Below, piece by piece: positions 6,749-47,085 of a stretch of 64,000 nucleotides of DNA (position 1 is its first letter; each line of letters opens with the position of its first letter). The translations under genes were made by a program, and so were the position numbers. This DNA is from a bacterium. Its GTDB lineage: Bacteria; UBA8248. Where the stretch lies: positions 1,920,001 through 1,984,000 of the forward strand of contig CBDBZU010000004.1 of the NCBI GenBank assembly GCA_965213625.1, in the 5' to 3' direction. Under the pieces are notes generated by a model. The model saw nothing but the letters and a program-made list of their open reading frames with translations. It was not told where the DNA came from and searched no databases.

Positions 6749-6855
6749 GGGGTTGTCCGTTGGTTGCCTCTACATCGTCGGGAGGCAAATTGTACCGCAT
6801 TCCTGGGCAAGAGTTTGAGTCCTCTCACCGGGATTCGGGAACAATGGGCAACCCC
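6749..6855 (+). ncRNA. Divergent orphan copy of the lipoprotein-trailer three-way-junction element
   Basis: GGGGTTGTCCGTTG...TGTACCGC...GAGTTTGAGTCCTC...CGGGAACAATGGGCAACCCC; same architecture as 41299-41398, with compensatory changes. Confidence 0.6.
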
Positions 6856-18519: not shown

Positions 18520-18946
18520 TGATATCAAATACATCGATTCAAAAGGTTCGGCTTCGAAACCATGGATCAAATGGTAGGATGATATGCTCCCTTGAAATAA
18601 GGGATGCGAAAACCCGCCAAGAGGTTTCTGGTGTTCTTGCGACAAGGCAGGCACGAACAAGAAAAGGCATACTCGGCACGGGAGAAAGGAAGCGAGAGCG
18701 GAAAACTCCTGCATCTACACCGCATAGCTTGACAGATGTCCACATAAGAAAGGGACCACCCTCCCTCTCTATCCCGGGTTGTTCCTGGAGAGGGGGGCAG
18801 TCCCTTTTTCTCTTGGTTCATAAGAAGAACAGGGGTTGCTCGTTGTTCCCGTTCCCGGCTCGAGGACTCAAACTCATAGCCAGGAGCGGTACAGTTTACC
18901 CATCACGAGAGAGCAACCAACGAGCAACCCCCCTATTCGTTCTCCT
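18520..18946 (-). repeat. Conserved lipoprotein trailer, copy 2 (junction element at 18832-18931)
   Basis: Near-identical to the reverse complement of the trailers at 24835-25450 and 41281-41887. Confidence 0.9.
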
Positions 18947-20869
18947 TCATTTCGCCTTCTTGATGTTCACGCCGAACCCGCCCGCGGCGGTTCCGTCCGT
19001 GAAGTTTGCGTTGAACTCGCCAGTAACAGCGCTCGGCGCCGTGTTGATGGCGGGAGTACTACCATTGCTATCATGGTCAACTTGTCCCGCTGTGCCGAAG
19101 AAAGCGCCGCTCCAAGAGCCTGCGGCCGCCGAGCTGTCACCCGTGGCAGTGCCGCTGAAGGTATTTTCGAATTGACTTCCTGCTGCCTCTTTGCCCGGGC
19201 CCATGCCTGTCCTGCCGCTGAAGTCAGTGGCATTCAGCTTCACTGCCCAGTCGTTATCAGCCGCATTTGAATTACCGCCGTCATCAGTGGGGTGCAGGGT
19301 GAAGTTCTTGACCTCTCCGCTGATGACGAACTGGTTGTTGACGCCGATGTTGCCACCGCCGAAGTTCGCGTTAAGCTCAACGTCCGCCTCGAACTGGCCG
19401 GAAGTGGACGAGAGGGTAGCGCCCTGGTTATCGGTCACGTTTTTCACGTACACGCCGGCAGCGCCGCCTTCATACGTCGCGTCGCCTGTAACTTGCCCAA
19501 TGTTCTGAGCGTCGCTTCGAGCTATTCCGTCCGCCCTGGCGAAGGTTTCGACTTCGTTGTAGACGGTGCCGTCTTTCGCCGACATCGTCCGCTTCAGCCA
19601 GAAGCCGTAGGAGAGGTAGCTGGCATCCGCTACGTCGACGGTTTCACCATCACCGGGAATGAACACCCAACCAGCGCTCATTCCGACTATCTCGCCCTTC
19701 GCGTTGAGGTTCACCGTGCAATTGACGTTTGAATTACACTTGTACGTGCCATCCGCGCCGTTGTAGGTGCCGGCGGTTTCAAATGCCGCACGCGGCTGAT
19801 TTCCATCGGTTTCTGAGTCGTTGTCCGCTATGAAATGGTTGAAATTAAGATTGGTCCCCGAGCCGGCGCCGGGTACAAAGGCAGACGACCTGACCAGCTT
19901 AAGCTCCGCTGAATCCGGTGGCGAGTTGGAGTCTGCACCAACAGATTTAGCGGTGAAGTCGTCTTCGGCATTGCCGTCGTTATCGGCGTCCATGGTGGGC
20001 GCGAGATCAACGTTCAGCATATACACGCCTTTATTGTCTCCATCGACCGCGAACGGCCTGGCTGTGGGTTCGGCGATGTCCGTGCGGACCACCACGACTT
20101 CCGATTCGGTCTCGCCGTCGTCGTTCTCTTTCATCGTGCGGACCTGCATGCTGCCATTGGCGAAACCCACGACCTCCGAGAATTGCGGATCTTCGTCCGC
20201 ATCCGGATTTGCTGTGTCAGTTACCTTGACCGTTATGCCCATACGGTTGCGGCTGACGGTGTACGAGTAAGTGCTAACAACTACCCCATCAGCAAGGGTG
20301 CCACCCACATTGGCGTCGGTCGTCTGTGCGGCTTCTGCAGCGATGGCCTTCACTTTTGTTCCGGCCGATTTCGTAACCGCCGCTGCTGCTGCTTTCGCTA
20401 CTGCCGCCGTTTCCGCCAAACCCGACGCCGTCATGGCATGGCTACGCGCCGTGGCGGCATTACCTGCTTCGGCCTGGGCCTGAGCGGCGAGCGCTTCCGC
20501 CGCTGCCGGGTCCGTCGCATTTGCAGCTGCGTCCGCCGCAGCCTTGGCCGCCATGGCGGCTGCTTCCGCAGAAGCTACAGCCGCAGCCACGGCCGCGTCG
20601 CCTTGGTGGTCCAGCATAGCCGCCGCATCAGTGTCCGCACGCGCGTTGGTTGCCGCCGTATCAGCGTTTCCTTGCGCCGTCACAATTCTTTCCTCGGAAG
20701 TCGGGGGCGGATCCACGCAGGCCCCGTCCATCATGACTTGAGGCGCCGTGCACATCACCGTATCCATAGCAGTAGTGCCACCGCCGCCGCCGCAGCCCGC
20801 CAGCACCAGCGCGAAGACGCCCGCAAGTGCAAAAGCGTAAAGCTTGCTTGATTTATCTCTGAACTTCAT
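18947..20869 (-). CDS. Surface lipoprotein paralog 2 (TbpB-like C-terminal barrel)
   Basis: 640 aa; LAGC lipobox; YLSYGFWL, ATYEGGAAGVY, GQFEADVELNANFG; C-terminal GEFNANFTDGTAAGGFG. Confidence 0.88.
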   Translation of the reverse strand: MKFRDKSSKLYAFALAGVFALVLAGCGGGGGTTAMDTVMCTAPQVMMDGACVDPPPTSEERIVTAQGNADTAATNARADTDAAAMLDHQGDAAVAAAVASAEAAAMAAKAAADAAANATDPAAAEALAAQAQAEAGNAATARSHAMTASGLAETAAVAKAAAAAVTKSAGTKVKAIAAEAAQTTDANVGGTLADGVVVSTYSYTVSRNRMGITVKVTDTANPDADEDPQFSEVVGFANGSMQVRTMKENDDGETESEVVVVRTDIAEPTARPFAVDGDNKGVYMLNVDLAPTMDADNDGNAEDDFTAKSVGADSNSPPDSAELKLVRSSAFVPGAGSGTNLNFNHFIADNDSETDGNQPRAAFETAGTYNGADGTYKCNSNVNCTVNLNAKGEIVGMSAGWVFIPGDGETVDVADASYLSYGFWLKRTMSAKDGTVYNEVETFARADGIARSDAQNIGQVTGDATYEGGAAGVYVKNVTDNQGATLSSTSGQFEADVELNANFGGGNIGVNNQFVISGEVKNFTLHPTDDGGNSNAADNDWAVKLNATDFSGRTGMGPGKEAAGSQFENTFSGTATGDSSAAAGSWSGAFFGTAGQVDHDSNGSTPAINTAPSAVTGEFNANFTDGTAAGGFGVNIKKAK

Positions 20870-22717: not shown

Positions 22718-24769
22718 ATGAAGTTCAGAGAGAAATCGATAAGCAAGCTTTACGCTTTTGCCCTGGCGGCGGTTTTCGCACTGACGCTGGCCGGCTGCGG
22801 CGGCGGCGGTGGCACGGCTGAGGAGCCGCCCCCGATGCCGACTCCGCAGGAGATGTGCGCGGATGCGGGCAATAGCTGGGTGGACGGTGCGTGCCTGACG
22901 CCCGCACAGGTGAAGTTCAATGAGACGCTCGCGGCCATCATGGCGGCCACCACGGCGGAAGCTGCCCAGGCGGCTTACGATGTGGTAAAGGACGATGTTA
23001 GCGCCTCGGATGGCGAGAAGCTTCAAGCTGCGGTCGATGAAAGAGTGGGTGCGCTTGCAATGATGGCGCGGGCCGAAGAGCAGAAGATGGCGCTGACGAT
23101 GGCCGCCGCCGACCTTGGCGCGATCGATCTTGAAGATCTGGACACGGCAGAAAAGATCGCCGCGGCCAACGATGCTATTGAGGCACTCAAAATGGCGTTG
23201 GCTAACGCGGCCGACGTGAGCGACGAAGACAAGGCCATGTACCAGACACAACTCGACGAGGCGGGCGCCGACGTGCGGATGGCGCAGACCGGTCTCAATA
23301 CCCAAGAGCGCATGGCGGCGCAGCGCACGGAGATCAACAATGCGGCCTCGATGGCCCGGACTGCGGTCGCCGGGGTGAGCGACACCTCCACCGATAGCGA
23401 GGTTGCTGCGGCGGACGCGGCGGTCCAGGCCGTCAAGGACGCGATCGCAGCCGCAGCGGATCTGTCGGAGGACGATGCCGCCATCATCGCTGCCAACGCC
23501 GTGCTTGAGACGATCGAGCCGCTCCTTGCCAAGGCCAAGACGAGCCGCATGGAGTATTTGGCCAAGAAGGGCGACGAGGACATGAAGGCCAATACCGCTC
23601 TGGGCAAGGCGCTGCACGCGGCGCTGGGAGGGCCCCAAGCAGGTGGTAACGCGCTGGCCAACATCGCCCCACCGACCCTGTCGGCGACCGGCCTCGACAT
23701 TGATGCTGCCCAAGGTGCGGGAGCTCTCGGAGACAGCGATGACGACCCTCGCCTCGCGACCCTCAAGGCCGGCGATTCCGCCGGAGCGTTGGGCAGCTGG
23801 AACGGCATGGACTATGCTCAATCCTCGGGTACCGGCGACGACAAGGTCACGAACGAAGCCAGGGTGTACACCAACCGGGGTCCGGCGGGGACGCAACCCT
23901 TCAGCGGGACAGGCGGAAAATACAACCTCGACGAAAACGGTTCGGTGGCGGTGAGTAACACAGCGCTAGTCATGGCCGCCGCATTCACGCACCAGGGAAA
24001 GCAGGATCACGCGGTGCCGAAACAACAAGATGCGGTGTACATTAAAGGCACATACGACGGTGCGCCGGGGACATTCAGATGCCAAACCGGTTGTTCATCG
24101 ACCAATGACGGCAAGGGCAGCCCGAATGAATTGGGCGGAATCTGGACGTTCGAGCCCGAAAAGGGCGCGATGGCGTCCAAGCCCGATGCCAACTACCTGT
24201 ACTACGGCTGGTGGGTGAGCAAGGACAATGACGGCGAGCCGACGGCCGCCAGCGCGTTCACCGGGATAGTGGGCAATGTCGACGGCGACCAGGCCGCTGT
24301 TAACGGTATTAATCTGACCGGCTCGGCGACCTATGTCGGCAAAGCCGTCGGCAAGTTCGCCATGAGCAATCCACTTGACGGCACGGGCAACGGCGGCCAC
24401 TTCACGGCGGACGCCGAACTGAAGGCCACGTTTGGGTCTGGCGCGACTGCAGGTATGACTGGCACGATCGACAACTTCCGGCTGAACGACGGGTCCGAGG
24501 ATCCAGGCTGGGGCGTGTCGCTGGCCCGCGGCACTTGGGCTGCCAACGGAGAAATCACAGCTCCCTCTGAGAAACCCACGGTCTGGTCGATCAACGGCAA
24601 CAAGGCGCCGGCGTCCGGCACCTGGAGCGGTAGGATGTACGACGAAATGCCCGGAGGCGCACCGGACGGCGACGGCAACAACATCCCGACCACTGTGACC
24701 GGCACCTTCTATTCCGAGTTCAGCACGATTGGCCGGATGGTCGGCGCGTTCGGCGCGAACAAGCAGTAG
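22718..24769 (+). CDS. Surface lipoprotein paralog 3 (TbpB-like C-terminal barrel)
   Basis: 683 aa; LAGC lipobox; long Ala-rich stalk; YLYYGWW, ATYVGKAVGKF, GHFTADAELKATFG; C-terminal GRMVGAFGA. Confidence 0.88.
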   Translation: MKFREKSISKLYAFALAAVFALTLAGCGGGGGTAEEPPPMPTPQEMCADAGNSWVDGACLTPAQVKFNETLAAIMAATTAEAAQAAYDVVKDDVSASDGEKLQAAVDERVGALAMMARAEEQKMALTMAAADLGAIDLEDLDTAEKIAAANDAIEALKMALANAADVSDEDKAMYQTQLDEAGADVRMAQTGLNTQERMAAQRTEINNAASMARTAVAGVSDTSTDSEVAAADAAVQAVKDAIAAAADLSEDDAAIIAANAVLETIEPLLAKAKTSRMEYLAKKGDEDMKANTALGKALHAALGGPQAGGNALANIAPPTLSATGLDIDAAQGAGALGDSDDDPRLATLKAGDSAGALGSWNGMDYAQSSGTGDDKVTNEARVYTNRGPAGTQPFSGTGGKYNLDENGSVAVSNTALVMAAAFTHQGKQDHAVPKQQDAVYIKGTYDGAPGTFRCQTGCSSTNDGKGSPNELGGIWTFEPEKGAMASKPDANYLYYGWWVSKDNDGEPTAASAFTGIVGNVDGDQAAVNGINLTGSATYVGKAVGKFAMSNPLDGTGNGGHFTADAELKATFGSGATAGMTGTIDNFRLNDGSEDPGWGVSLARGTWAANGEITAPSEKPTVWSINGNKAPASGTWSGRMYDEMPGGAPDGDGNNIPTTVTGTFYSEFSTIGRMVGAFGANKQ

Positions 24770-24834: not shown

Positions 24835-25450
24835 GGAAGCGAAAAGGGGGTTGCCCGTTGGTTGCTCTCTCGTGATGGGTAAACTGTACCGCTCCTGGCT
24901 ATGAGTTTGAGTCCTCGAGCCGGGAACGGGAACAACGAGCAACCCCTGTTCTTCTTTCTACGCGACTCGGATGTGCTTGAAATAAGAGAAAAAGGGACTA
25001 CCCCCCTCTCCAGGAACAACCCGGGATAGAGAGGGAGGGTAGTCCCTTTCTTATGTGGACATCTTTCAAGCTATTCGGTGTAGATTCAGGAGTTTTCCGC
25101 TCTCGCTGCCGTTCTCCCGTGCCGAGTATGCTTTTTCTTATTCGTGTCTGCCTGTCGCAAGAGCACCAGAAACCTCCTTGGCGGGTTTTTGCATCCCTTA
25201 TTTCAAGGGAGCATATCATCCTACCATTTGATCCATGGTTTCGAAGCCGACCCTCTTGAATCGATGAATTTGACTTTAGGTATTTACTGATTCATGTTCC
25301 CGCCAGCGCGGAGATGAAGAGGGGAAGCCGGAGGATTCACTCGGAAACCCCCACCAAGAAAGCAAATTAAGCTGCTTTCGCCGGGAGACGACGGCGCATC
25401 CAGCGTTCCAGCCCCCCGGTATCCGGTTCCAGCGGAAGATGCATGTCCTT
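24835..25450 (+). repeat. Conserved lipoprotein trailer, copy 3 (junction element at 24847-24946)
   Basis: Aligns with 41281-41887 over ~600 bp. Confidence 0.9.
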
Positions 25451-27439: not shown

Positions 27440-27704
27440 CGAAATATTTCAGGTAACCCTAAAGGGGTGTCCTGTCCGGACGAAAAGAACTTCAAGGGAC
27501 GAGCTTATGATTCCAAGCGGGAAGCCCCTTACCCGGTCGTTTGACATCGACCCGTTCACAGATTCAAATCCGCCTCCATGAGAGATAGAGGAGTGGTCTA
27601 GCGGTCGGACATCCAGGCGTTTCCAGAAGACACAAGACCGGGGCAATCTGGAATTACGGTCGTGGAGGTGCCCGATCGAGTGAGCGGGAACCTTGCGAAC
27701 GTGG

Positions 27705-29035: not shown

Positions 29036-29261
29036 GCTTGAAAGATGTCCACATAAGAAAGGGACTACCCTCCCTCTCTATCCCGGGTTGTTCCTGGAGA
29101 GGGGGGCAGTCCCTTTTTCTCTTGGTGCATAAAGAAGAACAGGGGTTGCTCGTTGTTCCCGTTCCCGGATCGAGGACTCAAACTCATAGCCAGGAGCGGT
29201 ACAGTTTACCCATCACGAGAGAGGCAACCAACGGGCAACCCCCTATTCGTTCTCCTTCATT
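29036..29261 (-). repeat. Conserved lipoprotein trailer, copy 4 (truncated; junction element at 29142-29242)
   Basis: Matches the first ~230 bp of the other trailers. Confidence 0.9.
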
Positions 29262-29312: not shown

Positions 29313-31064
29313 CTAATCCTTTAACCGCGCGCCGAACGCGCCGGTAGCGCTTCCGTTGACGAAAGTGGTGTTGAACTCGCCAACCAATACTTCAGGAGCA
29401 TCTGCAGGAGCTCTACCATTAGGAGCGTGGAATTGCCCGGTCAGGGAACGGGAACCCTCATTCCCCTTCATGCCGGAAGCTACTCCATTTTCTAGCACAA
29501 ATTCACTTGTGATGCCTGCTGTAATACCTACATTCCAGTTATGGCTTTCGCCATGCTCCAATTGAAAATTGGAAATACTACCGTGGATCGAGTTTTCTTT
29601 CCGGGTTGTGCTTCCATCGAAGGCAACATTCAGAGACACGTCCGCAGTGAACCTGCCGGATGTTTTAACAGCTACAGTTGAATCCGGATTTAACGTGTTG
29701 TGAACGTAAACTCCCGCGGCCCCCCCGGAATATTCCGCCGTTCCAGTAACTTCATCCAATGTTCCGGCTGCATCTGGAAGTGAAGAGAAAGCAAAAGTTT
29801 GAACGGTGTCGTAAGATGAGACAGCCCCATCTTTTGTCGTTGTTTCCAACCAGAAGCCGTAGTGCATATAGTCCTTATCCGCAACATCAACCATGGCTCC
29901 GGAATCTGGAGTGAACGTCCATGTTCCCGTCATAGCTGTTGCCTTACCTTTATCGTTAATTGTTACTACACAATCGGCATCGGTACACAGATATGTGCCC
30001 ATCGCACCATCGAAGCTGCCTCTGTGCATACCCTCATTTACAGCTGGAGTTGTACCATCGTCATTATCGAATTCTTTCCTTGTTGTGGCGCCTTCGTCAG
30101 GTATCGTTAAACCCAGGTCCACATGCGCCAAATGGTCGGTAGTGTTTACTTGAAGTGCTCTGAAATCATCTGCAGTGGTGTCCGTGTCGTTGTTTGCATC
30201 CAACCTATAGACCTTGGAAAACGCGGTCGGTTTGGGAGCCTCAATATCCGTGTGAACGACGATAATCTCCCTGCTGCTTCCGATATCTCGTGTAAGCATC
30301 TGACCATCGCCGAACCTGGCAACGCTGGAGAATTTCGGGTCGCCTTTGGCAAGGTTCTGCTCGTCAAGGACACCAACAGTTGCCATTGTCCCATCGTGCT
30401 TTACTGTAAGCCTATAATTGGTGGTAGCATCTGCATTAGGTTCAGCTTCATCTCCTATATCGGTGTCACCATCGAATGGCCGATCTTGTCCAGTACCGGA
30501 ATTTGCTTCTGCTGCGATAGCATCTTCCTTTGTTCCTGCGACCTTGTTGGCAGCCGCTTGCGCCGCCGCCGCCGCTGCCGCCGCATCGTCATCCGCCTTG
30601 GCCTGATTCACCATGCCGGCATACGCCACAGCGTCATCCCTGGCGGCTTCCGCATCCGCCTGAGCAGCTTCTGCCGCTCCTGACGTGGTGGCGGCCTGGG
30701 CAGCGCTGTTCGCCGCCTCCGCCGCACCGAGAGCCCGCAGAGCGGCGTCGTAGGAATCAGAGTCGGAATCACGATTCGCCGCCGCTGCGTTCACAGCCGC
30801 CATAGCCGCATTGTAAGCAGCCTGCGCTGCTGCTTGTGCATCTGTCAGTTTCATGGCTTCCAGTTCCGCAGCCGTGGTGCATGTGTTGTCCGCATTCCAG
30901 CGGCCGCCCGCATCCACGCATTCCATCTGCGGATCAGGCATCGGGGGCGGCTCTTCAACGGCAGCAGTCCCGCCGCCGCCGCCGCAGCCGGCCAGCGTCA
31001 GCGCGAACACCGCCGCCAGGGCAAAAGCGTAAAGCTTGCTTATCGATTTCTCTCTGAACTTCAT
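29313..31064 (-). CDS. Surface lipoprotein paralog 4 (TbpB-like C-terminal barrel)
   Basis: 583 aa; first ~174 aa nearly identical to paralog 5; YMHYGFWL, AEYSGGAAGVY; C-terminal GEFNTTFVNGSATGAFGA. Confidence 0.88.
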   Translation of the reverse strand: MKFREKSISKLYAFALAAVFALTLAGCGGGGGTAAVEEPPPMPDPQMECVDAGGRWNADNTCTTAAELEAMKLTDAQAAAQAAYNAAMAAVNAAAANRDSDSDSYDAALRALGAAEAANSAAQAATTSGAAEAAQADAEAARDDAVAYAGMVNQAKADDDAAAAAAAAQAAANKVAGTKEDAIAAEANSGTGQDRPFDGDTDIGDEAEPNADATTNYRLTVKHDGTMATVGVLDEQNLAKGDPKFSSVARFGDGQMLTRDIGSSREIIVVHTDIEAPKPTAFSKVYRLDANNDTDTTADDFRALQVNTTDHLAHVDLGLTIPDEGATTRKEFDNDDGTTPAVNEGMHRGSFDGAMGTYLCTDADCVVTINDKGKATAMTGTWTFTPDSGAMVDVADKDYMHYGFWLETTTKDGAVSSYDTVQTFAFSSLPDAAGTLDEVTGTAEYSGGAAGVYVHNTLNPDSTVAVKTSGRFTADVSLNVAFDGSTTRKENSIHGSISNFQLEHGESHNWNVGITAGITSEFVLENGVASGMKGNEGSRSLTGQFHAPNGRAPADAPEVLVGEFNTTFVNGSATGAFGARLKD

Positions 31065-31120
31065 TTAGTGAGTCCTCCTGAATACATAGAAAAAGGGATT
31101 TTCAGCGAATTTCCGACTTT
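31065..31120 (-). repeat. Conserved lipoprotein leader, copy 4 (proximal ~55 bp only)
   Basis: Identity to the other leaders ends after AAAGTCGGAAATTCGCTG. Confidence 0.85.
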
Positions 31121-36036: not shown

Positions 36037-36846
36037 ATGTGCATGATAATGAATTCCCGTCGGCTAAACACCAAAGATTATATCAGAAACCTTCTCGCTG
36101 GCGGGCGCCATCACTTTACTTCAAGCGACGCTCGCGAGGCGCTCGGCGTATCAGCAGCAGCCGCCAAACTCGCTCTTTACCGGCTGTCCAGGCAAAACAT
36201 AATCGCCCAGCCCGCTAGAGGCTTCTACGTAATCGTTCCTCCGGAATACCTCTCTCTGGAGTGTCTGCCGGCGGACCAGTTTATCCCGGCGCTGATGGAG
36301 CACCTGGGGCAAACCTACTATTCAGGTTTGCTTTCAGCCGCGCAATACCACGGCGCGGCCCATCACCGGCCCCAGGAATTCCAGGTGCTGCTCGACAAGG
36401 CCCGTCGGCCGATCCGCTGCGGCCGGGTGCGCGTGGTCTTCATCGTCCGCAAGCATCTTCGGAACGTACCCGTACAAACCTTCAACACGCCCCGGGGCAC
36501 GATTCGGGTGTCGACGCCGGAAGCGACGGCCGTCGATCTCGTCGGCTATTATCACCATACAGGTGGACTCGACCAGGTGGCGACCGTTCTCTCAGAACTC
36601 GCAGGGCAGATCGACCCAGAGAAACTGGTGACGGCCGCGCAGACCGCGCCGATCACCTGGGCGCAAAGACTTGGATACCTGCTCACGTTCGTCAATGCCC
36701 GCGAACGGGTCGTCCCTCTGAAGGATTATGTCAGGAGAGAAGCCCGGCGAACGGTTCCGCTTCTCCCCGGCGCATCAAGCGAAGAAGCGCCTCGCGATGC
36801 GGACTGGAAGCTCCTCGTAAACACGGACGTGGAACCGGACCTGTGA
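36037..36846 (+). CDS. abiEi: Type IV TA antitoxin AbiEi
   Basis: RGFYVIVPPEY, YYSGLLSAAQYHGAAH, VSTPEATAVDLV and QRLGYLL motifs. Confidence 0.85.
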   Translation: MCMIMNSRRLNTKDYIRNLLAGGRHHFTSSDAREALGVSAAAAKLALYRLSRQNIIAQPARGFYVIVPPEYLSLECLPADQFIPALMEHLGQTYYSGLLSAAQYHGAAHHRPQEFQVLLDKARRPIRCGRVRVVFIVRKHLRNVPVQTFNTPRGTIRVSTPEATAVDLVGYYHHTGGLDQVATVLSELAGQIDPEKLVTAAQTAPITWAQRLGYLLTFVNARERVVPLKDYVRREARRTVPLLPGASSEEAPRDADWKLLVNTDVEPDL

Positions 36847-37682
36847 TCCCGCGCGACTATATCACCGAGTGGCGGGCGCAGGCGCCATGGGTGCAGGATT
36901 TCCAGGTCGAGCAAGACCTCGTCATCAGCCGGGCTTTGATAGCGATTTTTACTCACCCGACCCTGGGAGAAGCGCTGGCCTTCCGGGGAGGTACGGCGCT
37001 CTACAAACTCCACATTCATCCCCCGGCCCGCTATTCGGAGGACATCGACCTCGTACAGGTCAGGACCGAGCCGGCCGGGCCGATGATGGGAGCGGTTCGG
37101 GAAGCCCTCGATCCATGGCTCGGGAAACCGCAATACAAACAGACCAAAGGACGCGTGACATTCAATTACCGCTTTCAGTCCGAGGATGCGCCGCCCCTTC
37201 CGCTGCGGCTGAAAGTGGAAATCAATTCACGGGAACACTTTGCGGTCTACGGATTCACCCGGCTGCCCCTTACCGTGTCTTCGCGCTGGTTCGAGGGCAG
37301 TTGCGCGATCACCACGTATACGCTCAAGGAGTTGCTGGCCACCAAGCTGCGCGCCCTCTACCAGCGTCGTAAAGGCCGGGATCTTTTCGATCTTGCGGTC
37401 GCGCTCGAAACAGGGACTCTCGACCCGGATCGGGTCGTCGCCGCGTTTGTGAAGTATATGGAGCGAGACGGCCACGACGTGACGAGAGCCCGGTTTGAGC
37501 AGAACCTCCAGGCGAAACTGCGCGACCCGCGGTTCAACGCCGATATCGGCCCGCTTCTGGCGACCGGATTTTCCTGGGACGCCGATCAAGCTGCGGCAAT
37601 CGTCCGCTCCAGGCTGATTGCGCGATTGCCGGGTGAGCCGTGGCAGGGCGGCAAAGATAGCAAGGGAAACGCGGAGGGGTAA
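36843..37682 (+). CDS. abiEii: Type IV TA toxin AbiEii nucleotidyltransferase
   Basis: GTGA overlap; QVEQDLVISRAL, FRGGTALYK, RYSEDIDL, KVEIN and KGRDLFDL motifs. Confidence 0.9.
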   Translation: MIPRDYITEWRAQAPWVQDFQVEQDLVISRALIAIFTHPTLGEALAFRGGTALYKLHIHPPARYSEDIDLVQVRTEPAGPMMGAVREALDPWLGKPQYKQTKGRVTFNYRFQSEDAPPLPLRLKVEINSREHFAVYGFTRLPLTVSSRWFEGSCAITTYTLKELLATKLRALYQRRKGRDLFDLAVALETGTLDPDRVVAAFVKYMERDGHDVTRARFEQNLQAKLRDPRFNADIGPLLATGFSWDADQAAAIVRSRLIARLPGEPWQGGKDSKGNAEG

Positions 37683-39114: not shown

Positions 39115-39465
39115 GGCCATTCAAGTCGGCGGAAGATTGGGTCGCCCGGGGCGCATGAGCGCCACTCAAGATTGATTTTTTCTCGTAAAAATAATCTGCA
39201 TCCGGTCGGCGGTGAGACCCGCTTCGTCGCGGCCCGCCGGCAGACACCGGCGCGACGGGGTGCGCAGAACTTGTAATGAATCCGCTATCTTTATGATTAC
39301 GGGCCTTGAAACACAGAATCCACGCCATCTTGAAACAATAATAATAGGATATATATCAATTAGTTATAAGAATTCAACGCTATTCCAAATGAGTCCTCGA
39401 TCTAAAAAGTCGGAAAGAAATTCACTGAAAATCCCTTTTTCTATGTATTCAGGAGGACTCACTAA
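39115..39465 (+). repeat. Conserved lipoprotein leader, copy 5
   Basis: Aligns with 22355-22717. Confidence 0.9.
39354..39366 (+). promoter_or_regulatory. IHF-consensus site in the leader
   Basis: TATCAATTAGTTA fits WATCAANNNNTTR, with an upstream AT tract; one-mismatch versions in leaders 1-3. Confidence 0.45.
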
Positions 39466-41220
39466 ATGAAGTTCAGAGAGAAATCGATAAGCAAGCTTTA
39501 CGCTTTTGCCCTGGCGGCGGTCTTCGCGCTGACGCTGGCTGGCTGCGGCGGCGGCGGCGGAACTGCTGCCGTTGAAGAGCCGCCCCCGATGCCTGATCCG
39601 CAGATGGAATGCGTGGATGCGGGCGGCCGCTGGAATGCGGACAACACATGCACCACGGCTGCGCAACTGGAAGCCATGAAACTGACAGATGCACAAGCAG
39701 CAGCGCAGGCTGCTTACAATGCGGCAAAAGCTGCGGTTGACGCAGCGGAGGCGAATCGCGATTCCGACCCTGATTCCTACGATGCCGCTCAGCGGGCTCT
39801 CGGTGCGGCGGAGGCGGCGAACAGCGCTGCCCAGGCCGCCACCATGTCAGGAGCGGCAGAAGCTGCTCAGGCGGATGCGGAAGACGCCAGGGATAACGCT
39901 GTGGCGTATGCCGGCATGGTGAATCAGGCCAAGGCGGATGACGATGCGGTGGCGGCGGCTGCGGCGGCGCAAGCGGCGCATAACAAGATGGTGGAGACGA
40001 AAATAAAAGCCATTTCGAGTGAGGCCGGCTCTGCGGTTCGAGCTGCTGGTCAGCCGTTTGACGACAACGATGAGGGTGATGATAATGACAACTATGCCGT
40101 CAAAATTTCGCACAAGGACGGCTCGGTGTCGATTGAAATAGATGACCCCGAAATGCCTGCGAAAAACGATCCCCAATTCACAATGTCGGACGGCAAATAC
40201 GTTCGCGACAACGGCGGCGGGGTAACGGAAATCATCAGCGTCATGACCGATATCGATGCGCCCGTGGATACGCCGTTCGGCAAGGAGCATAAACTCACGC
40301 TTGGCGATGCCGACGAGGATAGGACTGGCGATCAATTTACCACTTATGCTGTCAAAGATACGGACAATGGCAAAGTTGCGTCGTCTGAATTTCCGTCAAC
40401 ACCGAACACAGAGAGAAGATTTGACGTTAACGAAGACGGTACAGATAAAAACGAAGGCCAGTTCAGAGGCACCTTCGACGGCGCCTCGGGAACGTTTGAG
40501 TGCGTTGCCAGTAGTGGAAATTGTGATGTTACGACAGACGCCAAGGGTAAGTTAGAGGCGTTGACTCCTGGTGACTGGGAGTTCACACCGGACGCCGGCG
40601 AAACGGTCTCAGTCGCGGATAACGACTTCATGCACTATGGCTTCTGGATCAAGAAATCCACCAAGGACGGGGTGACCACTTATGACGAGGTGCAGACCTT
40701 CGCCGGTCATAGTAAGCCTAGGACCACGAATTACGCCCAAGTCGTAGACGGTTCCGCCAAGTACGAAGGCGGCGCACACGGGGTATACACGTACAATACC
40801 TTCAACGCCGACTCTTCTGTTGACGCCAGATCTGCCGGAACGTTCACGGCGGACGTTGCCCTTACGGCGTACTTCGGCGCGCAAAGTTCCGTGGCAGCGG
40901 ATAAGCACAATAAATTGGAAGGCACCGTGTCGAATTTTGAACTATCCGGTGGCGAACCCAACAAATGGGAACTCACATTGAGATCATCGGCAGAAGCCAA
41001 TATTTCAAATTCTGCCAGATTTACTGACGGCGTAGCGTCAGTAAAGGGACAGGCAGATGCCGCATCATGGTCCGCCTCATTCCATGGCGATGGAGCAGCC
41101 GTGGATGGCAATAATACGGGAACTGTAGCGCCGCCCCCGGCTGTGGTGGGTGAGTTCAACGGTAACTTTGCCAACGGAAGCGTGGCCGGCGCATACGGCG
41201 CAACCTACCAGAAGGACTAG
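39466..41220 (+). CDS. Surface lipoprotein paralog 5 (TbpB-like C-terminal barrel)
   Basis: 584 aa; LAGC lipobox; FMHYGFWI, AKYEGGAHGVY, GTFTADVALTAYFG; C-terminal GEFNGNFANGSVAGAYGA. Confidence 0.88.
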   Translation: MKFREKSISKLYAFALAAVFALTLAGCGGGGGTAAVEEPPPMPDPQMECVDAGGRWNADNTCTTAAQLEAMKLTDAQAAAQAAYNAAKAAVDAAEANRDSDPDSYDAAQRALGAAEAANSAAQAATMSGAAEAAQADAEDARDNAVAYAGMVNQAKADDDAVAAAAAAQAAHNKMVETKIKAISSEAGSAVRAAGQPFDDNDEGDDNDNYAVKISHKDGSVSIEIDDPEMPAKNDPQFTMSDGKYVRDNGGGVTEIISVMTDIDAPVDTPFGKEHKLTLGDADEDRTGDQFTTYAVKDTDNGKVASSEFPSTPNTERRFDVNEDGTDKNEGQFRGTFDGASGTFECVASSGNCDVTTDAKGKLEALTPGDWEFTPDAGETVSVADNDFMHYGFWIKKSTKDGVTTYDEVQTFAGHSKPRTTNYAQVVDGSAKYEGGAHGVYTYNTFNADSSVDARSAGTFTADVALTAYFGAQSSVAADKHNKLEGTVSNFELSGGEPNKWELTLRSSAEANISNSARFTDGVASVKGQADAASWSASFHGDGAAVDGNNTGTVAPPPAVVGEFNGNFANGSVAGAYGATYQKD

Positions 41221-41280
41221 TAATAAAGCAGGACACCTTGAGTCTCCGGGGCTTCACGGCCCCGGGGCCGGGGCGAGTTG

Positions 41281-41887
41281 TGAAGGAGAACGAATAGGGG
41301 GGTTGCTCGTTGGTTGCTCTCTCGTGATGGGTAAACTGTACCGCTCCTGGCTATGAGTTTGAGTCCTCGAGCCGGGAACGGGAACAACGAGCAACCCCTG
41401 TTCTTCTTCATGCACCAAGAGAAAAAGGGACTGCCCCCCTCTCCAGGAACAACCCGGGATAGAGAGGGCGGGCGGTCCCTTTCTTATGTGGACATCTTTC
41501 AAGCTATTCGGTGTAGATGCAGGAGTTTTCCGCTCTCGCTTCCGTTCTCCCGTGCCACGTATGTCTTTTCTTATTTGTGTCTGTCTGTCGCAAGAACACC
41601 AGAAAACCCCTGGCGGGTTTTCGCATCCCCCATCTCAAGGGAGCATATCATCGCACCATTTGATCCATGTCTTCGAAGCCTACCTCATGAATCGATTAAT
41701 TTGACTTTAGGAATTTACTGATTCATGTTCCCGCCAGCGCGGAGATGAAGCGGGGAAGCCTGAGGATGTATTCACTGGGAAACCACCTAACCTAGCGCGG
41801 AAAGAGTCTGCTTTCGCCGGGAGGCGACGGCGCATCCTGCGTTCCCGCCCCCTAGGTATCCGGTTCCGGCGGAAGACGCATGCCTTG
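41281..41887 (+). repeat. Conserved lipoprotein trailer, copy 5
   Basis: Full-length copy with the junction element (41299-41398) and a long hairpin (~41424-41482). Confidence 0.9.
41299..41398 (+). ncRNA. Candidate three-way-junction structured RNA (also 18832-18931, 24847-24946, 29142-29242, 6749-6855)
   Basis: Closing stem GGGGTTGCTCGTTG/CAACGAGCAACCCC with two internal stems and an invariant loop TTTGAGTC. Confidence 0.6.
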
Positions 41888-42111: not shown

Positions 42112-42672
42112 ATGTGGTTCCGCTCCCTGCTCCTGACGGCTGTCTTCGTCGTTTCCTTGTCGGCGCTGGCCTGCGTAGTGGGGCTTGCGCGTGACACGAC
42201 GGGCCATGACTGGCATGCGAGCGGCAAGCTCTTTTGGGCGGAAACGCTGCTCGCACTCCACTTCGACCGCCGGGCGCCGGTCAGGTACCGGACGAGGAAG
42301 GGCGCGGAAGTAACACTCCCTCGCGGCGAACTCCTGTTCAATGGCGAGGCGCTGCTGGCGCGTGACCGTCTCCTCTACACGGCGAAGCGGTCCGCCGAGT
42401 TGGGCGCCTGGTGCGGCCTGGGCGGCGCGTTGATATGCCTCGCGCTGGTCTGGTGTTATGAGGCCGAACGCGGCGATCGGCGCACGCCGCAGGAGCCCCG
42501 CAGGAGGAGCCCGGGCTCAGCTTCACCGACGCCCGAGGCCATGGCGCCCGTCCCTACACCGACTGGACCGGATGCTCCCCGGCCCCGGAAACAACAGCCT
42601 GCCGGCGCGAACCGCAGGGAAGAAGCGCCTGCGCCCGCACCTCGTAAGCGCAACTACGGCCGCTGGATCTGA
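42112..42672 (+). CDS. Two-TM membrane protein resembling the N-terminus of a TraD/TrwB coupling protein, without an ATPase domain
   Basis: Two hydrophobic segments and a Pro-rich tail; TGATG coupling to the relaxase; no Walker A motif. Confidence 0.5.
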   Translation: MWFRSLLLTAVFVVSLSALACVVGLARDTTGHDWHASGKLFWAETLLALHFDRRAPVRYRTRKGAEVTLPRGELLFNGEALLARDRLLYTAKRSAELGAWCGLGGALICLALVWCYEAERGDRRTPQEPRRRSPGSASPTPEAMAPVPTPTGPDAPRPRKQQPAGANRREEAPAPAPRKRNYGRWI

Positions 42673-45614
42673 TGGTCGCCTCGATCGGAGCGGTGGCGAG
42701 CCCCTCGCAAGGTGCTAATTACTACGAGCGGGATGGCTACTACGCGAAGGACTCGGCAGAGCACCTTGCCTCAAGCGCCTGGGCCGGCAAGGGCGCCGAA
42801 GCCCTGGGGCTCGAGGGACCGGTCGACCCGGACTTGTTCCGGGCGGTGCTCGAGGGCTGTGTGCCCGACGGCTCAGGGCGGCGTCTCGGCCGAAGGACCC
42901 GGGAGGGAGGGATTCACCACCGGCCCGGGCGCGACATCACCTTCTCGGCACCCAAGTCCGTGTCCCTGGTCGCGCTCATCGGCGGGGACGCGCGCGTCGT
43001 CGACGCCCACGACCGCGCCGTCACGAGGGCGCTCGACTGGTTCGAGCGAAACGCCGCCGAGACGAGGATGAAGGACCCTGAGACGGGACGTATAGTCCGG
43101 GCCGGCGGCCAGAAGGCCGTGATCGCGACGTTCCGCCACGAGACGTCGAGAAACCTCGACCCGGCGCTGCATACCCACTCTGTCATCGCCAACATGCTGC
43201 TCGGCGCGGAGGGCAAGTGGAGGACGATGGCGAACGAGCGCCTCTACGCGTCGAAGATGCTGCTGGGCGCGCTCTACCGGAGCGAACTCGCGGGTGAGCT
43301 AATGAGACTCGGGTACCGGATCGAGAAGACCCACGCCGACGGGCGGTTCGAGATCGGGGGCGTCTCGCGCGAAACCATCGAGGCGTTCTCCTCGCGCCGC
43401 ACGGAGATCGAGGCGGCGATGGAAAGCCGGGGCCACGGCGCCACGGCGGAGAACCAGCACCTCGCCCGGCGGGCGGCCCTGATGACCCGCGCGCACAAGC
43501 GCGACGTGGACAAGGAGGCGCTGCGTGGGATCTGGGCCAAACAGGCATCGGAACTCGGTCTTGACGCGAAAGCGCTCGTCGCCTCGGCCACCGAACGGGC
43601 GTTGCACGTCCCTGGGAAAGAGAGGGCACGGGAAGCGGGCAGGGACTTTTCGCCCGGGGCGGACCCCTCGAAGGAGGCCGTCGAGTGGGCGCTCGCCCAC
43701 CTCTCGGAGCGCGATGCGGTGTTCGCGAGGACGGATCTACTCGCCGCAACGCTCGCCCACGGCCCAGGCTCCGCATCCATCGGGGCCATCGAGCGGGTCG
43801 TCGAGGGCCTCAAGCGCGAGGGCCGCCTGTACGATGCGCCGGCGCTCAAGGGAGGCGGCGGGCTGACCACCGATCTGGCCGTGGCCCGCGAGCGCGAGAC
43901 GATCACACTCATGCGAATGGGTGCTGGCCGGGGCAAGGCGGCGATGCGCGGCTGGATGGTGGAGCGGCACCTGCGCAAGGGGCCGCTCACGGACGGTCAG
44001 AAACAGGCGGTGAAACTCATCTTATCGGAGAAGGACCGGACTGTCGGCGTGCAGGGCTACGCCGGTGTTGGCAAGACGCGGATGCTCGATCGCGCGCGAA
44101 CGATTGCCGCGAAGAAGAGCTGGCGCGTCATGGGACTCGCCCCATCGGCGTCCGCGGTACGCACGCTGGAGGCGGAATCGGGGATTAAGAGCGAGACTTT
44201 GCAGCGGTTCCTGGCGAGGAACGCAGGATTGGCCCAAGGCCGCCTCACGAAAGGGGCCGCCAGAAAGATGCACGCCGCCTTCGCGAAGACAGTGCTGGTG
44301 GTCGATGAGGGCTCGCTGGCGTCCACCGCCCAGGCCCGCGACCTGCTTGAAATCGCGAGCGTCCTGCGCATACCGAAGCTGGTACTCGTCGGAGACGCTA
44401 AACAACTCGAAGCCGTAGACGCCGGTAAACCATTCGCCCAGTTCCAGGCCGCGGGTATGAAGACCGCGGTGATGGACGAAATACTGCGCCAGCGCGCCCC
44501 CGATCTCAAGGCTGCGGTCGAGGCCACTCTCGCGGGCGAGATCGGGCGCGCATTTCAAAAACTGGGAGACAACGTCGCAGAAGTAAACCCTAAAAACATC
44601 GCAGGCGCCGTGGCGGCAAGGTGGCTGAAACTCTCCCCCGACATGCGCGAGCGCACCGGGGTGATGTCGCCTGGCCATGAACTGCGCGAGGCGATCAACG
44701 CCCACATCCGTGAACGCCTGGTGCGCGAGGGCCGCATCGCGGGTCCGGCGCTCCTGACGAAGCGGCTGGTGTCTAAGGGCTACACGAACGCCGAGAAGGC
44801 GCTCGCGGCCAACTACGCGCCCGGCGACGTGGTCGCCTTCCACCGATCCTACAAGAGGCTCGGCGTCGAAAAGGGCGAGGAGCGGCGCGTTCTGGGCGTG
44901 GATCGCGAGCGTGGAACCGTCCGGCTCGAAGCCCCTGGCGGCTCGATTGTGGACTGGAAGCCGGCCCGGATCGGCGGAAGGCGGGGCGGGACCGAGGTCT
45001 ACCGCCCCGAAACCATCGAGCTTCGCGCCGGCGACCGGGTGCGCTGGACCCGGAACGACAAGGGTCTGGGACTCGTGAACAGCGCCACAGCGGAGGTTTT
45101 AGGGGTCCGCAACGGGCGGGTGACGTTCACCCTCGAGGAAGGCCGCAAGCTCGTCCTCACCCGGGGCGACCCGCAACTGCGCCATCTCGATCGCGCCTGG
45201 GCCTCGACCGTGCACGCCTTTCAGGGGCGCACGGTGGACAACGTCATCGCCGCGATGGAGGCGAACCACCCCCACCTGACCACGGCGAAAGCGTTTTACG
45301 TCGAGATATCGCGCGCCCGGGACAGGGCCGAACTCGTCACCGACGACGCGAAGGCGCTCAAGGAGCGGCTCGAAACCGTCACCGGCGAGCGCATCTCCGC
45401 ACTCGAAGGCATCGGGGAGACCGTCCAACCGGCACACGGACGTGAGCACGGGAAGGATGGGAAAGCGTCGCCGAGCCTCGTACAGCGGAGCGCGGAGGCA
45501 TCGACGCCACCTTCGCCGGAGAGAGAAATCAAGCCAAAACTCACACGCGACAGGATGCCGGAGCCCGGGCCGTCCGCGCGCGAGAAGCGCATCGATATGG
45601 ATTTGGGGCTCTGA
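42672..45614 (+). CDS. trwC: MOBF conjugative relaxase-helicase (TrwC/TraI type)
   Basis: 980 aa; YY..DGYY, DITFSAPKSVS, HETSRNLDPALHTH; helicase GYAGVGKT, VDEGS, TVHAFQGRT, FYVEISRAR. Confidence 0.95.
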   Translation: MVASIGAVASPSQGANYYERDGYYAKDSAEHLASSAWAGKGAEALGLEGPVDPDLFRAVLEGCVPDGSGRRLGRRTREGGIHHRPGRDITFSAPKSVSLVALIGGDARVVDAHDRAVTRALDWFERNAAETRMKDPETGRIVRAGGQKAVIATFRHETSRNLDPALHTHSVIANMLLGAEGKWRTMANERLYASKMLLGALYRSELAGELMRLGYRIEKTHADGRFEIGGVSRETIEAFSSRRTEIEAAMESRGHGATAENQHLARRAALMTRAHKRDVDKEALRGIWAKQASELGLDAKALVASATERALHVPGKERAREAGRDFSPGADPSKEAVEWALAHLSERDAVFARTDLLAATLAHGPGSASIGAIERVVEGLKREGRLYDAPALKGGGGLTTDLAVARERETITLMRMGAGRGKAAMRGWMVERHLRKGPLTDGQKQAVKLILSEKDRTVGVQGYAGVGKTRMLDRARTIAAKKSWRVMGLAPSASAVRTLEAESGIKSETLQRFLARNAGLAQGRLTKGAARKMHAAFAKTVLVVDEGSLASTAQARDLLEIASVLRIPKLVLVGDAKQLEAVDAGKPFAQFQAAGMKTAVMDEILRQRAPDLKAAVEATLAGEIGRAFQKLGDNVAEVNPKNIAGAVAARWLKLSPDMRERTGVMSPGHELREAINAHIRERLVREGRIAGPALLTKRLVSKGYTNAEKALAANYAPGDVVAFHRSYKRLGVEKGEERRVLGVDRERGTVRLEAPGGSIVDWKPARIGGRRGGTEVYRPETIELRAGDRVRWTRNDKGLGLVNSATAEVLGVRNGRVTFTLEEGRKLVLTRGDPQLRHLDRAWASTVHAFQGRTVDNVIAAMEANHPHLTTAKAFYVEISRARDRAELVTDDAKALKERLETVTGERISALEGIGETVQPAHGREHGKDGKASPSLVQRSAEASTPPSPEREIKPKLTRDRMPEPGPSAREKRIDMDLGL

Positions 45615-45689: not shown

Positions 45690-47033
45690 TCACGAGCGCA
45701 GGCGCCACCGCAACCGTCCGGCCTGGAAGGGCCGGGGTTTCTTTTCCCAGCGCTCCAAGCCGGCCAACCAGTAGCAGGCGTAACTGATCTGGTCGTTCTC
45801 GTCGGTCGTCGGTTCTGCCTTAACGGCGCGTTCGTGGATTCGGGGCCAGTCAGCCACGTATTCCCGAACGAACCAGCCCAGCGCGAGAAGCGCCGCACGC
45901 TCATCCCCGGTCAAATCGCGGAACATGTCCTGAAGGTCCACGTAGGACGGCAATCTGTCATACTCCGCGAGATCTTCAGCCGACCGGAATACAAACCTGT
46001 CGTGCTGATCCTCGGCTTTGTCCGCCTCACGCGCATCGACATCACTCTGCCAAGCCGTATAGGCGTCGTTCAATTTCTCGACCTTCGATCGGGAAATCGC
46101 GGGAGCCGGGTCGCGTCTCGCATCAGTCTCCATGATCCACTTTACGGTCAGCTCTCGTTCTTCGCGCAATCCGTCTAGGTCGTCGTCGTCGGGGCGCGGC
46201 TCCCTTATCGTCAGCGGCCACAACGGATATGGCCAGTGCCGTGCGATGAAACGTGCGTCCGATTCTTCGATGGCGCCGCAATGCTGTGCGAGACGGTTCA
46301 GCGTTTCGGCGATCAGGTGGTGCAATTCCCCGCGATCTGTGTGCGGCTCGGGCGCAAAGTCTCTCCAGACATGAGCGATTTCGGCGAGGCCGTCGGCCGA
46401 AACAGCGCCCGCTCGGGACAAGGATTGGACAAGCATGACACAATCTGACGTCATATATTACGACTGGGAATCGTACGGATTGGCCGGAGCAATCCAGAAG
46501 CACGCGCCTGCGCCGTCGGTCACATCCTGGACATAATCGACATAGAGGTCGCGTTCACGTTTCTCCGAAACCGCGTTCGGGAAGATCGAGTCGATCTCGT
46601 TCGGTCCGTCGAGATACCAAGGGCGGCACTCGCGCTCGACCAAGTCCGAGACTTCACCGAACGATGCGATCCTCGGATATTCGCATGCCATGGCATGGAT
46701 TCGCTTCGCAACATGGCCGTAGAAGCGGTCCAACACCTGCGATCTTTGTCCTGATTTCCTCGAACATCGAACATAGTCGATGAGGATCTGTACCTTTGCG
46801 GCCTCCTCCTCGGCGAAGCCACGCATGACCTCCGAAGCGCGGAACTCCCCGTCCCGGTATAGTCGCTGGGCGATTTCATCGAGGCTCGTCGCATTGTCGA
46901 CGATAAGCGGCATGCCCTCCGACAACGTCTCCAGGAGATCGATGTCGGAAAGCTGCTCCAGATTGCGTATTGCCCGTCTCACTCGATGCCTCCCATCCGA
47001 TACGATTGCGACGCGTATATCTTCTTTTACCAT
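45690..47033 (-). pseudogene. AbiV-like protein with a DUF3775-like C-terminus, split by one in-frame TAA at 46458-46460
   Basis: FAEEEAAKVQILID...FYGHVAK in the N-terminal half; ORFs 46458-47045 and 45690-46454 are in the same frame. Confidence 0.55.
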
Positions 47034-47085
47034 GGCTTGAAGCAATCCCTGACGAAGGGATAGGAGCTTCCGGCGACGGAGTTAC

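Follow-up and report, generated by a model that had tools for sequence, protein, structure and literature searches.

A covarying three-way-junction element, probably an RNA module of 3′ untranslated regions, linked to putative Slam-type surface-lipoprotein genes of sponge-associated Nitrospinota

The 64,000-nucleotide (nt) stretch analysed here (the window; assembly GCA_965213625.1, contig CBDBZU010000004.1, positions 1,920,001 to 1,984,000) belongs to a genome of 4.15 Mb in four contigs and carries five copies of an element that is 100–107 nt long in alignment. Copy 1 (41299..41398, plus strand; 100 nt; covariance-model score 120.4 bits) follows a surface-lipoprotein (SLP) gene at 39466..41220 (+), which encodes 584 amino acids (aa) with the lipobox LAGC. 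Copy 2 (18832..18931, −) is the same as copy 1, with 100% identity over 128 nt, and lies behind the 640-aa SLP gene at 18947..20869 (−). Copy 3 (24847..24946, +) follows a gene for a 683-aa SLP (22718..24769, +), and copy 4 (29142..29242, −; 101 nt) follows one for a 583-aa SLP (29313..31064, −). These four belong to class I of the family described below; copy 5 (6749..6855, +) is a 107-nt variant, Ib, with no lipoprotein gene upstream. The first-pass annotation had located all five copies, and a pattern scan and alignment returned each of them. Its statement that the element stands after every complete lipoprotein gene holds for the four complete genes of the window, but copy 5 has no such gene before it, and elsewhere in the genome the element is missing from at least two genes of the family.

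Alone and as a consensus, every window copy folds into a 14-bp helix (P1), a hairpin (P2) and a long hairpin (P3). This three-way junction is the minimum-free-energy fold, with z scores against shuffled sequences of −6.4 for copy 1 and −4.5 for copy 5. In copy 1, P1 is formed by 41299-41312 and 41385-41398 (+) and encloses the P2 hairpin, the junction strand ACTGTA, P3 and the junction strand GAA; P3 is capped by GAGTTTGAGTCCTC (41355-41368, +). Alignment and folding agree in every part with the architecture first proposed (P1, P2, an A[CT]TGTA junction, a capped P3 and a GAA junction), and with two finer points: P1 of copy 5 has a compensatory C-G for U-A and two G-U wobbles, and P1 of copies 3 and 4 has a single C-A mismatch each. 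The 14-mer of the cap has five exact matches in the window, at 6811 (+), 18862 (−), 24903 (+), 29172 (−) and 41355 (+). Allowing up to two mismatches raises the number to seven, against 0.33 expected, and none of 100 shuffles reached seven. The two extra matches (17650 and 26219) fall within the coding region of a duplicated gene and have no relation to the element. The two copies of that gene (17419-17919, +; 25966-26499, −) are inverted, 96% identical over about 700 nt and convergent to the lipoprotein units, and encode an alanine- and arginine-rich product without a Pfam match.

The element, typically 62–125 nt past the stop codon, is embedded in a larger 3′ module. Behind copy 1's gene, a G+C-rich hairpin without a U tract (H0, 41228..41281, +) stands right behind the stop codon, and its sequence type is kept in most class I copies. 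It is followed by the purine-rich strand GAAGGAGAAC (41282..41291, +), which in the fold of 41221-41500 pairs with the pyrimidine-rich strand GTTCTTCTTC (41400..41409, +) to form a 10-bp outer helix, P0. A 6-nt internal loop (41292-41297) separates P0 from P1, and the two together span about 25 bp. By inspection, the flanks of other copies pair in other registers (GAGCGAAAA/UUUUCGCUU, AAGGAGAG/CUCUCCUU and GAGUG/CACUC). Further downstream, a long hairpin followed by a U-rich run (41422..41492, +) resembles a terminator and recurs with each class I copy of the window. In a lenient scan with the same settings for both sets, a terminator-like hairpin and T run lay within 260 nt downstream of 71/78 copies of classes I, Ib and II and of 29/78 coding-sequence controls. 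No promoter-like site was found between the stop codon and copy 1. In many genomes, some 20–160 nt 3′ of class I elements (L031, L009, L011, L144 and others), lies a second conserved module of about 130 nt, which begins near GCCGACACCCCGACTCGGCC and ends with GAGGGGTGTCGGCCCTTTC; its ends pair over long range and its tail is U-rich. Rfam gave no match to it, and a structured terminator and another RNA are both possible identities.

Three further copies lie in the same genome outside the window, at C4:3369696-3369799 and, as a tandem pair, at C4:790924-791021 and C4:791116-791210. A covariance model and a genome search had been suggested as a check on the motif; a first model, built from six copies, gave a family of 104 matches in 18 of 151 related genomes. 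Of 23 genomes in the genus, that of the window included, 17 carry the element, with between 2 and 16 matches per genome. One weak match falls outside the genus, in a genome (G047) of another family in the same taxonomic class. A second model, built from 78 sequences and run against 51 genomes of the phylum, returned the same 18 genomes. An exact-pattern scan of one genome per species (185,579 species) gave 58 stretches, all from metagenome-assembled genomes (MAGs) labelled Nitrospinota, Nitrospinaceae or unclassified "bacterium", bar one 5.4-kb contig labelled Binatia. The latter has the gene-plus-element architecture unchanged and may be mis-binned. According to the record labels, the host genus consists of sponge-associated Nitrospinota MAGs. 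Relaxing the pattern gave 16 stretches in metagenome contigs, 15 of which score 75–110 bits with the covariance model, and no match in 2.9 million viral contigs.

Five classes of the element can be set apart by sequence. Class I (100–104 nt, mostly 100–102) is present in many copies per genome and includes copies 1–4; variant Ib (107 nt) comprises copy 5 and its homologue at L060:7756-7862; class II (104 nt) has about one copy per genome; class III measures 98–99 nt. Class IV (95–97 nt) has the P1 and P2 region in common with the others and a different third arm. Classes III and IV stand in tandem at one conserved locus. A P2 ending in GGGTAA is found in the three distinct class I sequences of the window's genome and in no other row of the alignment. 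Tandem arrays of two or three elements occur at L051:3001-3471, L044:3001-3284, L035:3001-3287 and L144:270-815, with spacers of about 85–340 nt that repeat the last codons of the lipoprotein gene, so that the stacked 3′ ends look as if left by successive replacement or duplication. In five of the class III loci scanned (L036, L042, L046, L047 and L049), a conserved 154-aa protein starting with MLEKKSSAFTTYCRGYENV is encoded on the same strand, about 530–565 nt 3′ of the element.

The fold is maintained across the family by many compensatory changes. In 74 of 83 distinct sequences, the three-way junction is the sequence's own minimum-energy fold. When 102 matches, 84 of them distinct, are aligned by fitting to the covariance model, 96.1% of cells pair and 24 of 35 base pairs show double-sided changes; none of 500 column shuffles reached the observed values on any of five measures. 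Sliding the 3′ partners by 1–3 columns lowers pairing to 28–66%, with at most nine double-change pairs. The covariation first noticed among the five window copies is strong in this larger alignment. Because a fitted alignment leans towards its model, the count was redone after aligning, with plain MAFFT, 16 class III copies of 14 genomes, most of which contribute a single locus. Here, too, 96.1% is paired, and five pairs show double changes, four of them in P3, where two pairs display at least three distinct standard pair types across species. The percentage paired and the covariation score were reached by 0/500 shuffles, and the number of double-change pairs by 147/500.

The conservation has a strand. 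P1 contains 82 G-U cells against 5 A-C cells, and the sense fold beats the antisense fold in 80/83 sequences, with a mean gain of 7.3 kcal/mol. A fold specific to the sense strand of the gene is likelier to act as RNA than as duplex DNA. Element lengths of 98–107 nt, with indels of one and two bases, leave no conserved reading frame. A small open reading frame (ORF) from the AAGGAG tract was also considered and set aside; by inspection, its frame is shifted between the 100- and 102-nt forms. The structure is under selection. Compensatory change preserves the fold, which belongs to the sense strand and goes with one gene family.

The element has several conserved unpaired nucleotides, a feature typical of RNA modules. 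UCGU is present in the P2 loop of all 83 sequences, the long junction strand ends in NGUA in 80/83 (UGUA in 54, AGUA in 20), and the GAA junction is kept in 69/83. The P3 cap reads GAGUUUGAGUCCUC in 61/83 and GAGUUGGGUCCUC in 15/83. The NGUA and GAA strands directly flank P3. A bulged-G (sarcin-ricin, or loop E) module has a strand AGUA 5′ of a helix and GAA 3′ of it; by sequence, the strands at the base of P3 fit this consensus and are a candidate for such a module. By inspection, a kissing interaction between the P2 and P3 loops (CUCG/UGAG) is possible in classes I and III, and not in class II or the distant copy.

The link to the gene family was scored as an ORF with the family's C-terminal motif stopping no more than 360 nt upstream of the element. 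Such an ORF precedes 63/65 class I copies (one further copy, with too short a flank, was left out) and 13/13 class II copies, against 3/99 downstream flanks and 23/2000 random genome windows. By inspection, the two class I exceptions have a diverged form of the motif. The motif is found upstream of neither Ib copy and of 6/20 class III copies; in the low-scoring group of eight class IV copies and L023 it is upstream of one of nine, namely L023. At the class III/IV locus the upstream reading frames have shrunk to remnants of 19–75 codons with ...AFGTHRRR-like tails. In G047, the element lies 285 nt behind a gene of the lipoprotein family. Of the 17 genus genomes that have the element, 16 gave a hit in a query search for the family; of the six that lack it, five gave none with the same query.

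The lipoproteins themselves were hard to place. The four full-length window proteins had no Pfam match with E values as permissive as 5, the PDB, searched by sequence with a single protein and with a profile of 24 sequences, yielded no relevant entry, and a lipoprotein-query search of named genomes found no relative. Among 24 C-terminal domains searched separately, TbpB_B_D weakly matches three and FHBP_C two, and a neighbouring family member passes TbpB_B_D with 29.2 bits (cut-off 26). An AlphaFold model of the last 170 residues (pLDDT 81.8) has eight strands; its top Foldseek match is the C-domain of NHBA (E 7e-4), followed by TbpB, LbpB and HpuA, with probabilities of 0.96–1.0 and TM scores of only 0.37–0.48. 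The fold assignment came from these domain-wise Pfam matches and the structural model, which alone gave it. The genome has one Slam homologue (PF04575, 94 bits), directly after an element-free family member. By sequence and model, the linked genes encode TbpB/NHBA-like surface lipoproteins of Slam type: the proteins carry lipoboxes, the C-terminal barrel is predicted to be eight-stranded, and a Slam gene, a candidate for their export, is present. The lipoprotein and Slam genes form a canonical operon-like pair (C4:1463735-1467049, L154), which points to a Slam-type system in Nitrospinota, outside Proteobacteria. The family member of this pair is followed by a plain hairpin, with no three-way junction.

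The four gene units of the window are mosaic. In all six pairwise comparisons, identity is 0.84–0.99 at the 5′ end, 0.42–0.69 in the body and 0.78–0.97 in the 3′ module. Promoter, leader and the first 190 or so codons are 84–99% identical (22444-22820, 39188-39568, 30543-31113, 20850-21107), and the bodies about 50–65%. Leaders in other genomes have an extended conserved segment that includes a T-arm-like GGGTTCAAGTCC and an additional AAAGGAGG box. At C4:3373405-3373921 (−), four tandem leader repeats, each with GAGGACTCA and then a short ORF, sit upstream of a class II-linked lipoprotein gene, and a doubled leader of similar kind is found at C4:1463487 and 1463701.

The element matches no RNA family of Rfam. 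Rfam 15 gave no match over the whole window at gathering thresholds. With E relaxed to 10 over 41200-41650, no row on the element approached its gathering score: the one weak row there is MIR844 (20.2 bits against 70 needed), and the best permissive rows sit on the terminator hairpin. Searches at E up to 0.1 of loci of classes II–IV and the distant copy, and a search of a class I 3′ untranslated region (UTR) of another genome, were likewise without match. The Rfam comparison proposed in the first-pass annotation has thus produced no family for the element, at gathering or permissive thresholds, and its idea of a new 3′-UTR or small-RNA motif is backed by this result together with the covariation, the sense-strand fold, the lack of a conserved reading frame and the downstream terminator-like hairpin. 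Its other idea, a single-stranded DNA recombination signal, is not supported as the primary role; there is no association with a recombinase or relaxase and no cassette array, and the conserved unpaired nucleotides suit an RNA module.

Several specific identities were considered and rejected. ARAGORN found no tRNA or tmRNA in the window. A tRNA-like arm is also a poor description: a T-loop follows a rule of U54-A58 type residues, and the P3 cap loop is 8 nt long (class III: 7 nt), with class III carrying G where the T-loop needs A. Integron attC sites stand in cassette arrays in one orientation, with an integron integrase and core sites RYYYAAC/GTTRRRY, and fold from the bottom strand. Here, the copies alternate in strand with other genes between them, the arms misfit the core sites on inspection, and the coding-strand fold is favoured. 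Just one integrase is encoded in the window, a phage-type enzyme with an arm-binding domain. For an origin of transfer or nic site there is no consistent relaxase neighbour, TrwC homologues being encoded in 4 of 80 downstream flanks. No reverse transcriptase, as expected of a diversity-generating retroelement or retron, was present among the 68 window ORFs scanned. A riboswitch for a downstream gene fits poorly, as the downstream genes vary and a lipoprotein gene starts on the same strand within 1 kb in only 5/76 cases.

Taken together, these results make it probable that the element is a 3′-UTR module that functions as sense-strand RNA. The fuller statement, that it is a 3′-UTR RNA domain of Slam-type SLP genes with a role in stability or processing, is our preferred account and, judged from sequence, a somewhat better than even proposition. 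The element would be transcribed in the sense direction within the 3′ UTR of SLP genes, in a module that runs from the stop codon through H0, a purine-rich tract, P1 (often lengthened by P0) and the junction to the terminator-like hairpin. The junction would present P2, with UCGU in its loop, and a long P3 capped by GAG-UUUGAGUC-CUC. Such a module could decide the fate of the SLP mRNA. Long duplexes may be cut by double-strand-specific RNases or may block 3′ exonucleases, and the 24–25-bp P0/P1 helix would accordingly be a candidate determinant of 3′-end stability or of processing by a double-strand RNase, with the invariant apical loop as a recognition surface. In this way the element may help control the amount of surface lipoprotein made. 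It would constitute a new family of structured RNA within a known general kind, the cis-encoded 3′-UTR element, with unusual features.

A number of observations weigh against this account. The large alignment was fitted to the model structure; all genomes are related MAGs, so that the sequences are not independent, and copies within a genome are homogenised. P0 is clear only in some copies (mean z −1.1, 19/99 below −2). Of the family genes in this genome, at least two lack the element (C4:1463735-1465447 and the gene starting at about window position 2054 on the minus strand).

It is tempting to assign a partner to the apical loop. The ribosome-binding region of copy 1's gene, GAGGACTCA (39453..39461, +), is a 9-nt complement of TGAGTCCTC, which occurs in the P3 cap (41360-41368, +). 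The 5′ leader has another TGAGTCCTC box (39390..39398, +), which lies 75 nt before the start codon; the predicted leader fold pairs it with the ribosome-binding region, as is the case in three of the four window leaders. More generally, the largest family subgroup has the ribosome-binding region GAGGACUCA, to which the invariant sequence at the apex, UGAGUCCUC, is complementary. The 9-nt complementarity to GAGGACUCA is found in 17 of 32 element-linked genes with complete 5′ ends, and by inspection complementarity reaches 11 nt with GAGGACUCAAA of the class II genes. Six SLP genes of this genome, all in the largest subgroup, have GAGGACUCA immediately before the start codon. The start pattern AGGAGGACTCR...ATG occurs 1 to 26 times per genus genome with the element (at least six times in 8/17) and 0–1 times in the other genomes searched; a reversed control gave 0–2 per strand. 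The loop UGAGUCCUC might pair with GAGGACUCA in cis, or in trans once the RNA is released, so that translation of paralogues would be damped.

Several points speak against this pairing. The complementarity was found post hoc, and three nucleotides of the complementary stretch sit within the P3 cap helix. Among linked genes with a complete 5′ region, 15/31 have another type of ribosome-binding region and no GACUCA within 120 nt, which rules out cis pairing between 5′ and 3′ ends as a general feature. For the class III loop variant UGGGUCCUC, a gene start that fits was found in this genome alone, the 14-mer tested being present in 0/22 other genus genomes, and the 5′ leaders fold no better than shuffled sequence (z +1.2 to −1.75). 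Because it is post hoc, covers part of the genes and lacks support from the leader folds, we regard pairing of the loop with the ribosome-binding region of the largest SLP subgroup, in cis or trans, as a possible but doubtful mode of damping translation. A bolder version, in which the loop in the 3′ UTR of each expressed paralogue pairs with the ribosome-binding region GAGGACUCA of its own and sister mRNAs, RNA released from one locus by a cut in P0/P1 acts as a family-wide "governor" that throttles translation of the others, and the block doubles as a recombination bookend for swapping gene bodies, is improbable. If true, the variable surface antigens of an animal symbiont would in effect be under dosage control or mutually exclusive.

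The position of the element bears on whether it belongs to the mRNA at all. It could instead be a free-standing small RNA gene, or an RNA excised from the 3′ UTR, acting in trans only, with its place behind lipoprotein genes an accident of co-duplication. The class III/IV tandem, which persists at one conserved locus where the upstream gene is reduced to remnants in most genomes, would suit such an RNA, and P3 of class III at that locus still shows compensatory changes. Orphan copies exist as well (copy 5, L060:7756 and the second copy in L144). However, these orphans keep decayed C-terminal coding remnants, which fit leftovers of gene 3′ ends, the distance from the stop codon is constant (the 62–125 nt given above), and the promoter-like site that a separate gene would call for was not found before copy 1. 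We consider a purely trans-acting RNA unlikely.

The mosaic gene units raise a second alternative, in which the primary role is at the level of DNA: the 3′ module and the conserved 5′ ends would be homology "bookends" for exchange of gene bodies, and the RNA fold would be secondary. The identity profile of all six window comparisons is as expected for this, as are variants common to the copies of one genome, such as the GGGTAA-ending P2, and the C-terminal coding remnants between tandem elements at L051, L044, L035 and L144. Homology needs no helices, yet 24/35 pairs are kept by double changes; nor does it account for the excess of G-U over A-C cells (82 to 5) or for loop and junction residues that are invariant while stems vary. 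No recombinase is linked either, with an integrase in 0/80 and TrwC in 4/80 downstream flanks. As the primary function this is quite unlikely. The two roles are nonetheless compatible and do not exclude each other, and the 3′ module, as a conserved "bookend" of diverged paralogues, may have a side role as recombination homology.

Covarying stems combined with invariant unpaired nucleotides, in a multi-copy sequence of regions rich in mobile elements, would also suit a self-cleaving ribozyme or a ligand-binding aptamer in the 3′ UTR, and the junction strands (0–1, 5–6 and 3 nt, the last GAA) recall the layout of a type III hammerhead. In that ribozyme, stems I and II are joined by CUGANGA, stem III is preceded by GAA, and the cleavage site is an unpaired residue other than G. 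In the element CUGANGA is absent; the long junction (NNUGUA or NAGUA) has UGUA, AGUA or CGUA after one or two variable bases, and the lone unpaired base after P1, equivalent to the cleavage site, is G or missing. Rfam models of hammerhead, twister, pistol and hatchet ribozymes and of riboswitches gave no match at E up to 10. As for an aptamer, the genes downstream of copies 2 and 3 are convergent, so that these copies cannot be 5′ riboswitches. Either identity is very unlikely. Least credible of all is a Correia-like miniature inverted-repeat transposable element with P1 as its terminal inverted repeats, despite a length of about 100 nt, 14-bp repeats, up to 16 copies per genome and the occupation of both strands in a region full of mobile genes, for 76/78 copies of classes I and II stand behind members of one gene family, the orientation is invariably sense, the flanks show no target-site duplication, arm differences are G-U-compatible and not symmetric, internal helices covary, and the 2.9 million viral contigs held no match.

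The surroundings of the five copies are a patchwork of integrative and mobilisable elements with toxin–antitoxin and defence genes. The cargo of these kinds comprises a fusion of an AEP primase and helicase of a TOTE conflict system (11217-13661, −), HipA (8056-9312, +), an AbiEii nucleotidyltransferase (36261-37682, +) and an AbiV-like HEPN protein (46458-47045, −). An ankyrin-repeat protein is encoded at 33457-34218. A truncated, frame-broken copy of the TrwC relaxase gene (27598-29054, −) starts right after the 3′ module of copy 4 and matches the intact gene at 42672-45614 (+) from about 42889, which suggests that a deletion joined the copy 4 module to the relaxase.

Structured, covarying RNA domains are rare in bacterial 3′ UTRs, and the link of such an RNA to a whole variable surface-lipoprotein family is apparently undescribed, judging from Rfam and the literature searched. 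Literature searches on lipoproteins of Nitrospinota and sponges and on Slam surface lipoproteins yielded no publication about this RNA, within a search whose scope ended short of supplements and subscription journals. The family is compact and has good comparative support. Were control of stability or translation to be real, the element would provide a handle on how an uncultivated animal symbiont manages its mosaic Slam-type repertoire, a question for which pathogens such as Neisseria are otherwise the main subjects. The linked genes extend Slam-type lipoprotein systems to Nitrospinota.

Among known systems, the type III hammerhead (Rfam RF00008) is the nearest in layout, with a three-way junction closed by the 5′/3′ helix, similar strand lengths and a GAA strand 3′ of the second hairpin in both. 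The element departs from it in having no CUGANGA, no unpaired non-G residue at the cleavage site, and no match to the Rfam model. The upstream and downstream homology sequences of Borrelia vsp/vlp genes and the 3′ repeat of Neisseria pilin loci are DNA recombination substrates, for which we know of no reported conserved RNA fold. As in those systems, a conserved 5′ end and 3′ block bracket a hypervariable surface-lipoprotein body; in contrast to them, the block here is a covarying, strand-specific RNA structure. The icaR 3′ UTR reportedly contains a short pyrimidine-rich UCCCC motif complementary to the ribosome-binding site of its own mRNA, with RNase III acting on the duplex. This structured bacterial 3′ UTR with a complement of the ribosome-binding site is the model for the loop lead described above. 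Its anti-Shine-Dalgarno element, as outlined for Staphylococcus aureus (PLoS Genet 2013, PMC3868564), belongs to a single gene, whereas a 100-nt covarying three-way-junction domain is common to up to 16 paralogues per genome here, with complementarity in only about half of the linked genes.

The Correia repeat enclosed elements (CREE) of Neisseria are multi-copy, about 100–150 nt long, with terminal inverted repeats, and are co-transcribed with their neighbours; the CREE hairpin is reported to be able to bind RNase III and to be cleaved or protected by it (BMC Genomics 2009, PMC2649163), which resembles the role proposed here for P0/P1. CREE are, however, mobile and present in many unrelated contexts, whereas the element is confined to one gene family and one orientation, and shows sense-strand G-U bias, internal covariation and no visible target duplication. 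In a search of the Slam-lipoprotein literature that was not aimed at 3′-UTR RNA, no structured 3′ RNA turned up. Known Slam-dependent surface lipoproteins are TbpB, LbpB, HpuA, fHbp and NHBA (Front Cell Infect Microbiol 2017, PMC5449769). The linked proteins resemble these in the modelled eight-stranded C-terminal barrel, nearest to NHBA, TbpB, LbpB and HpuA, and in the presence of a Slam gene in the genome. In contrast to them, the genes are found in Nitrospinota and not in Proteobacteria, and form a large and mosaic family of paralogues.

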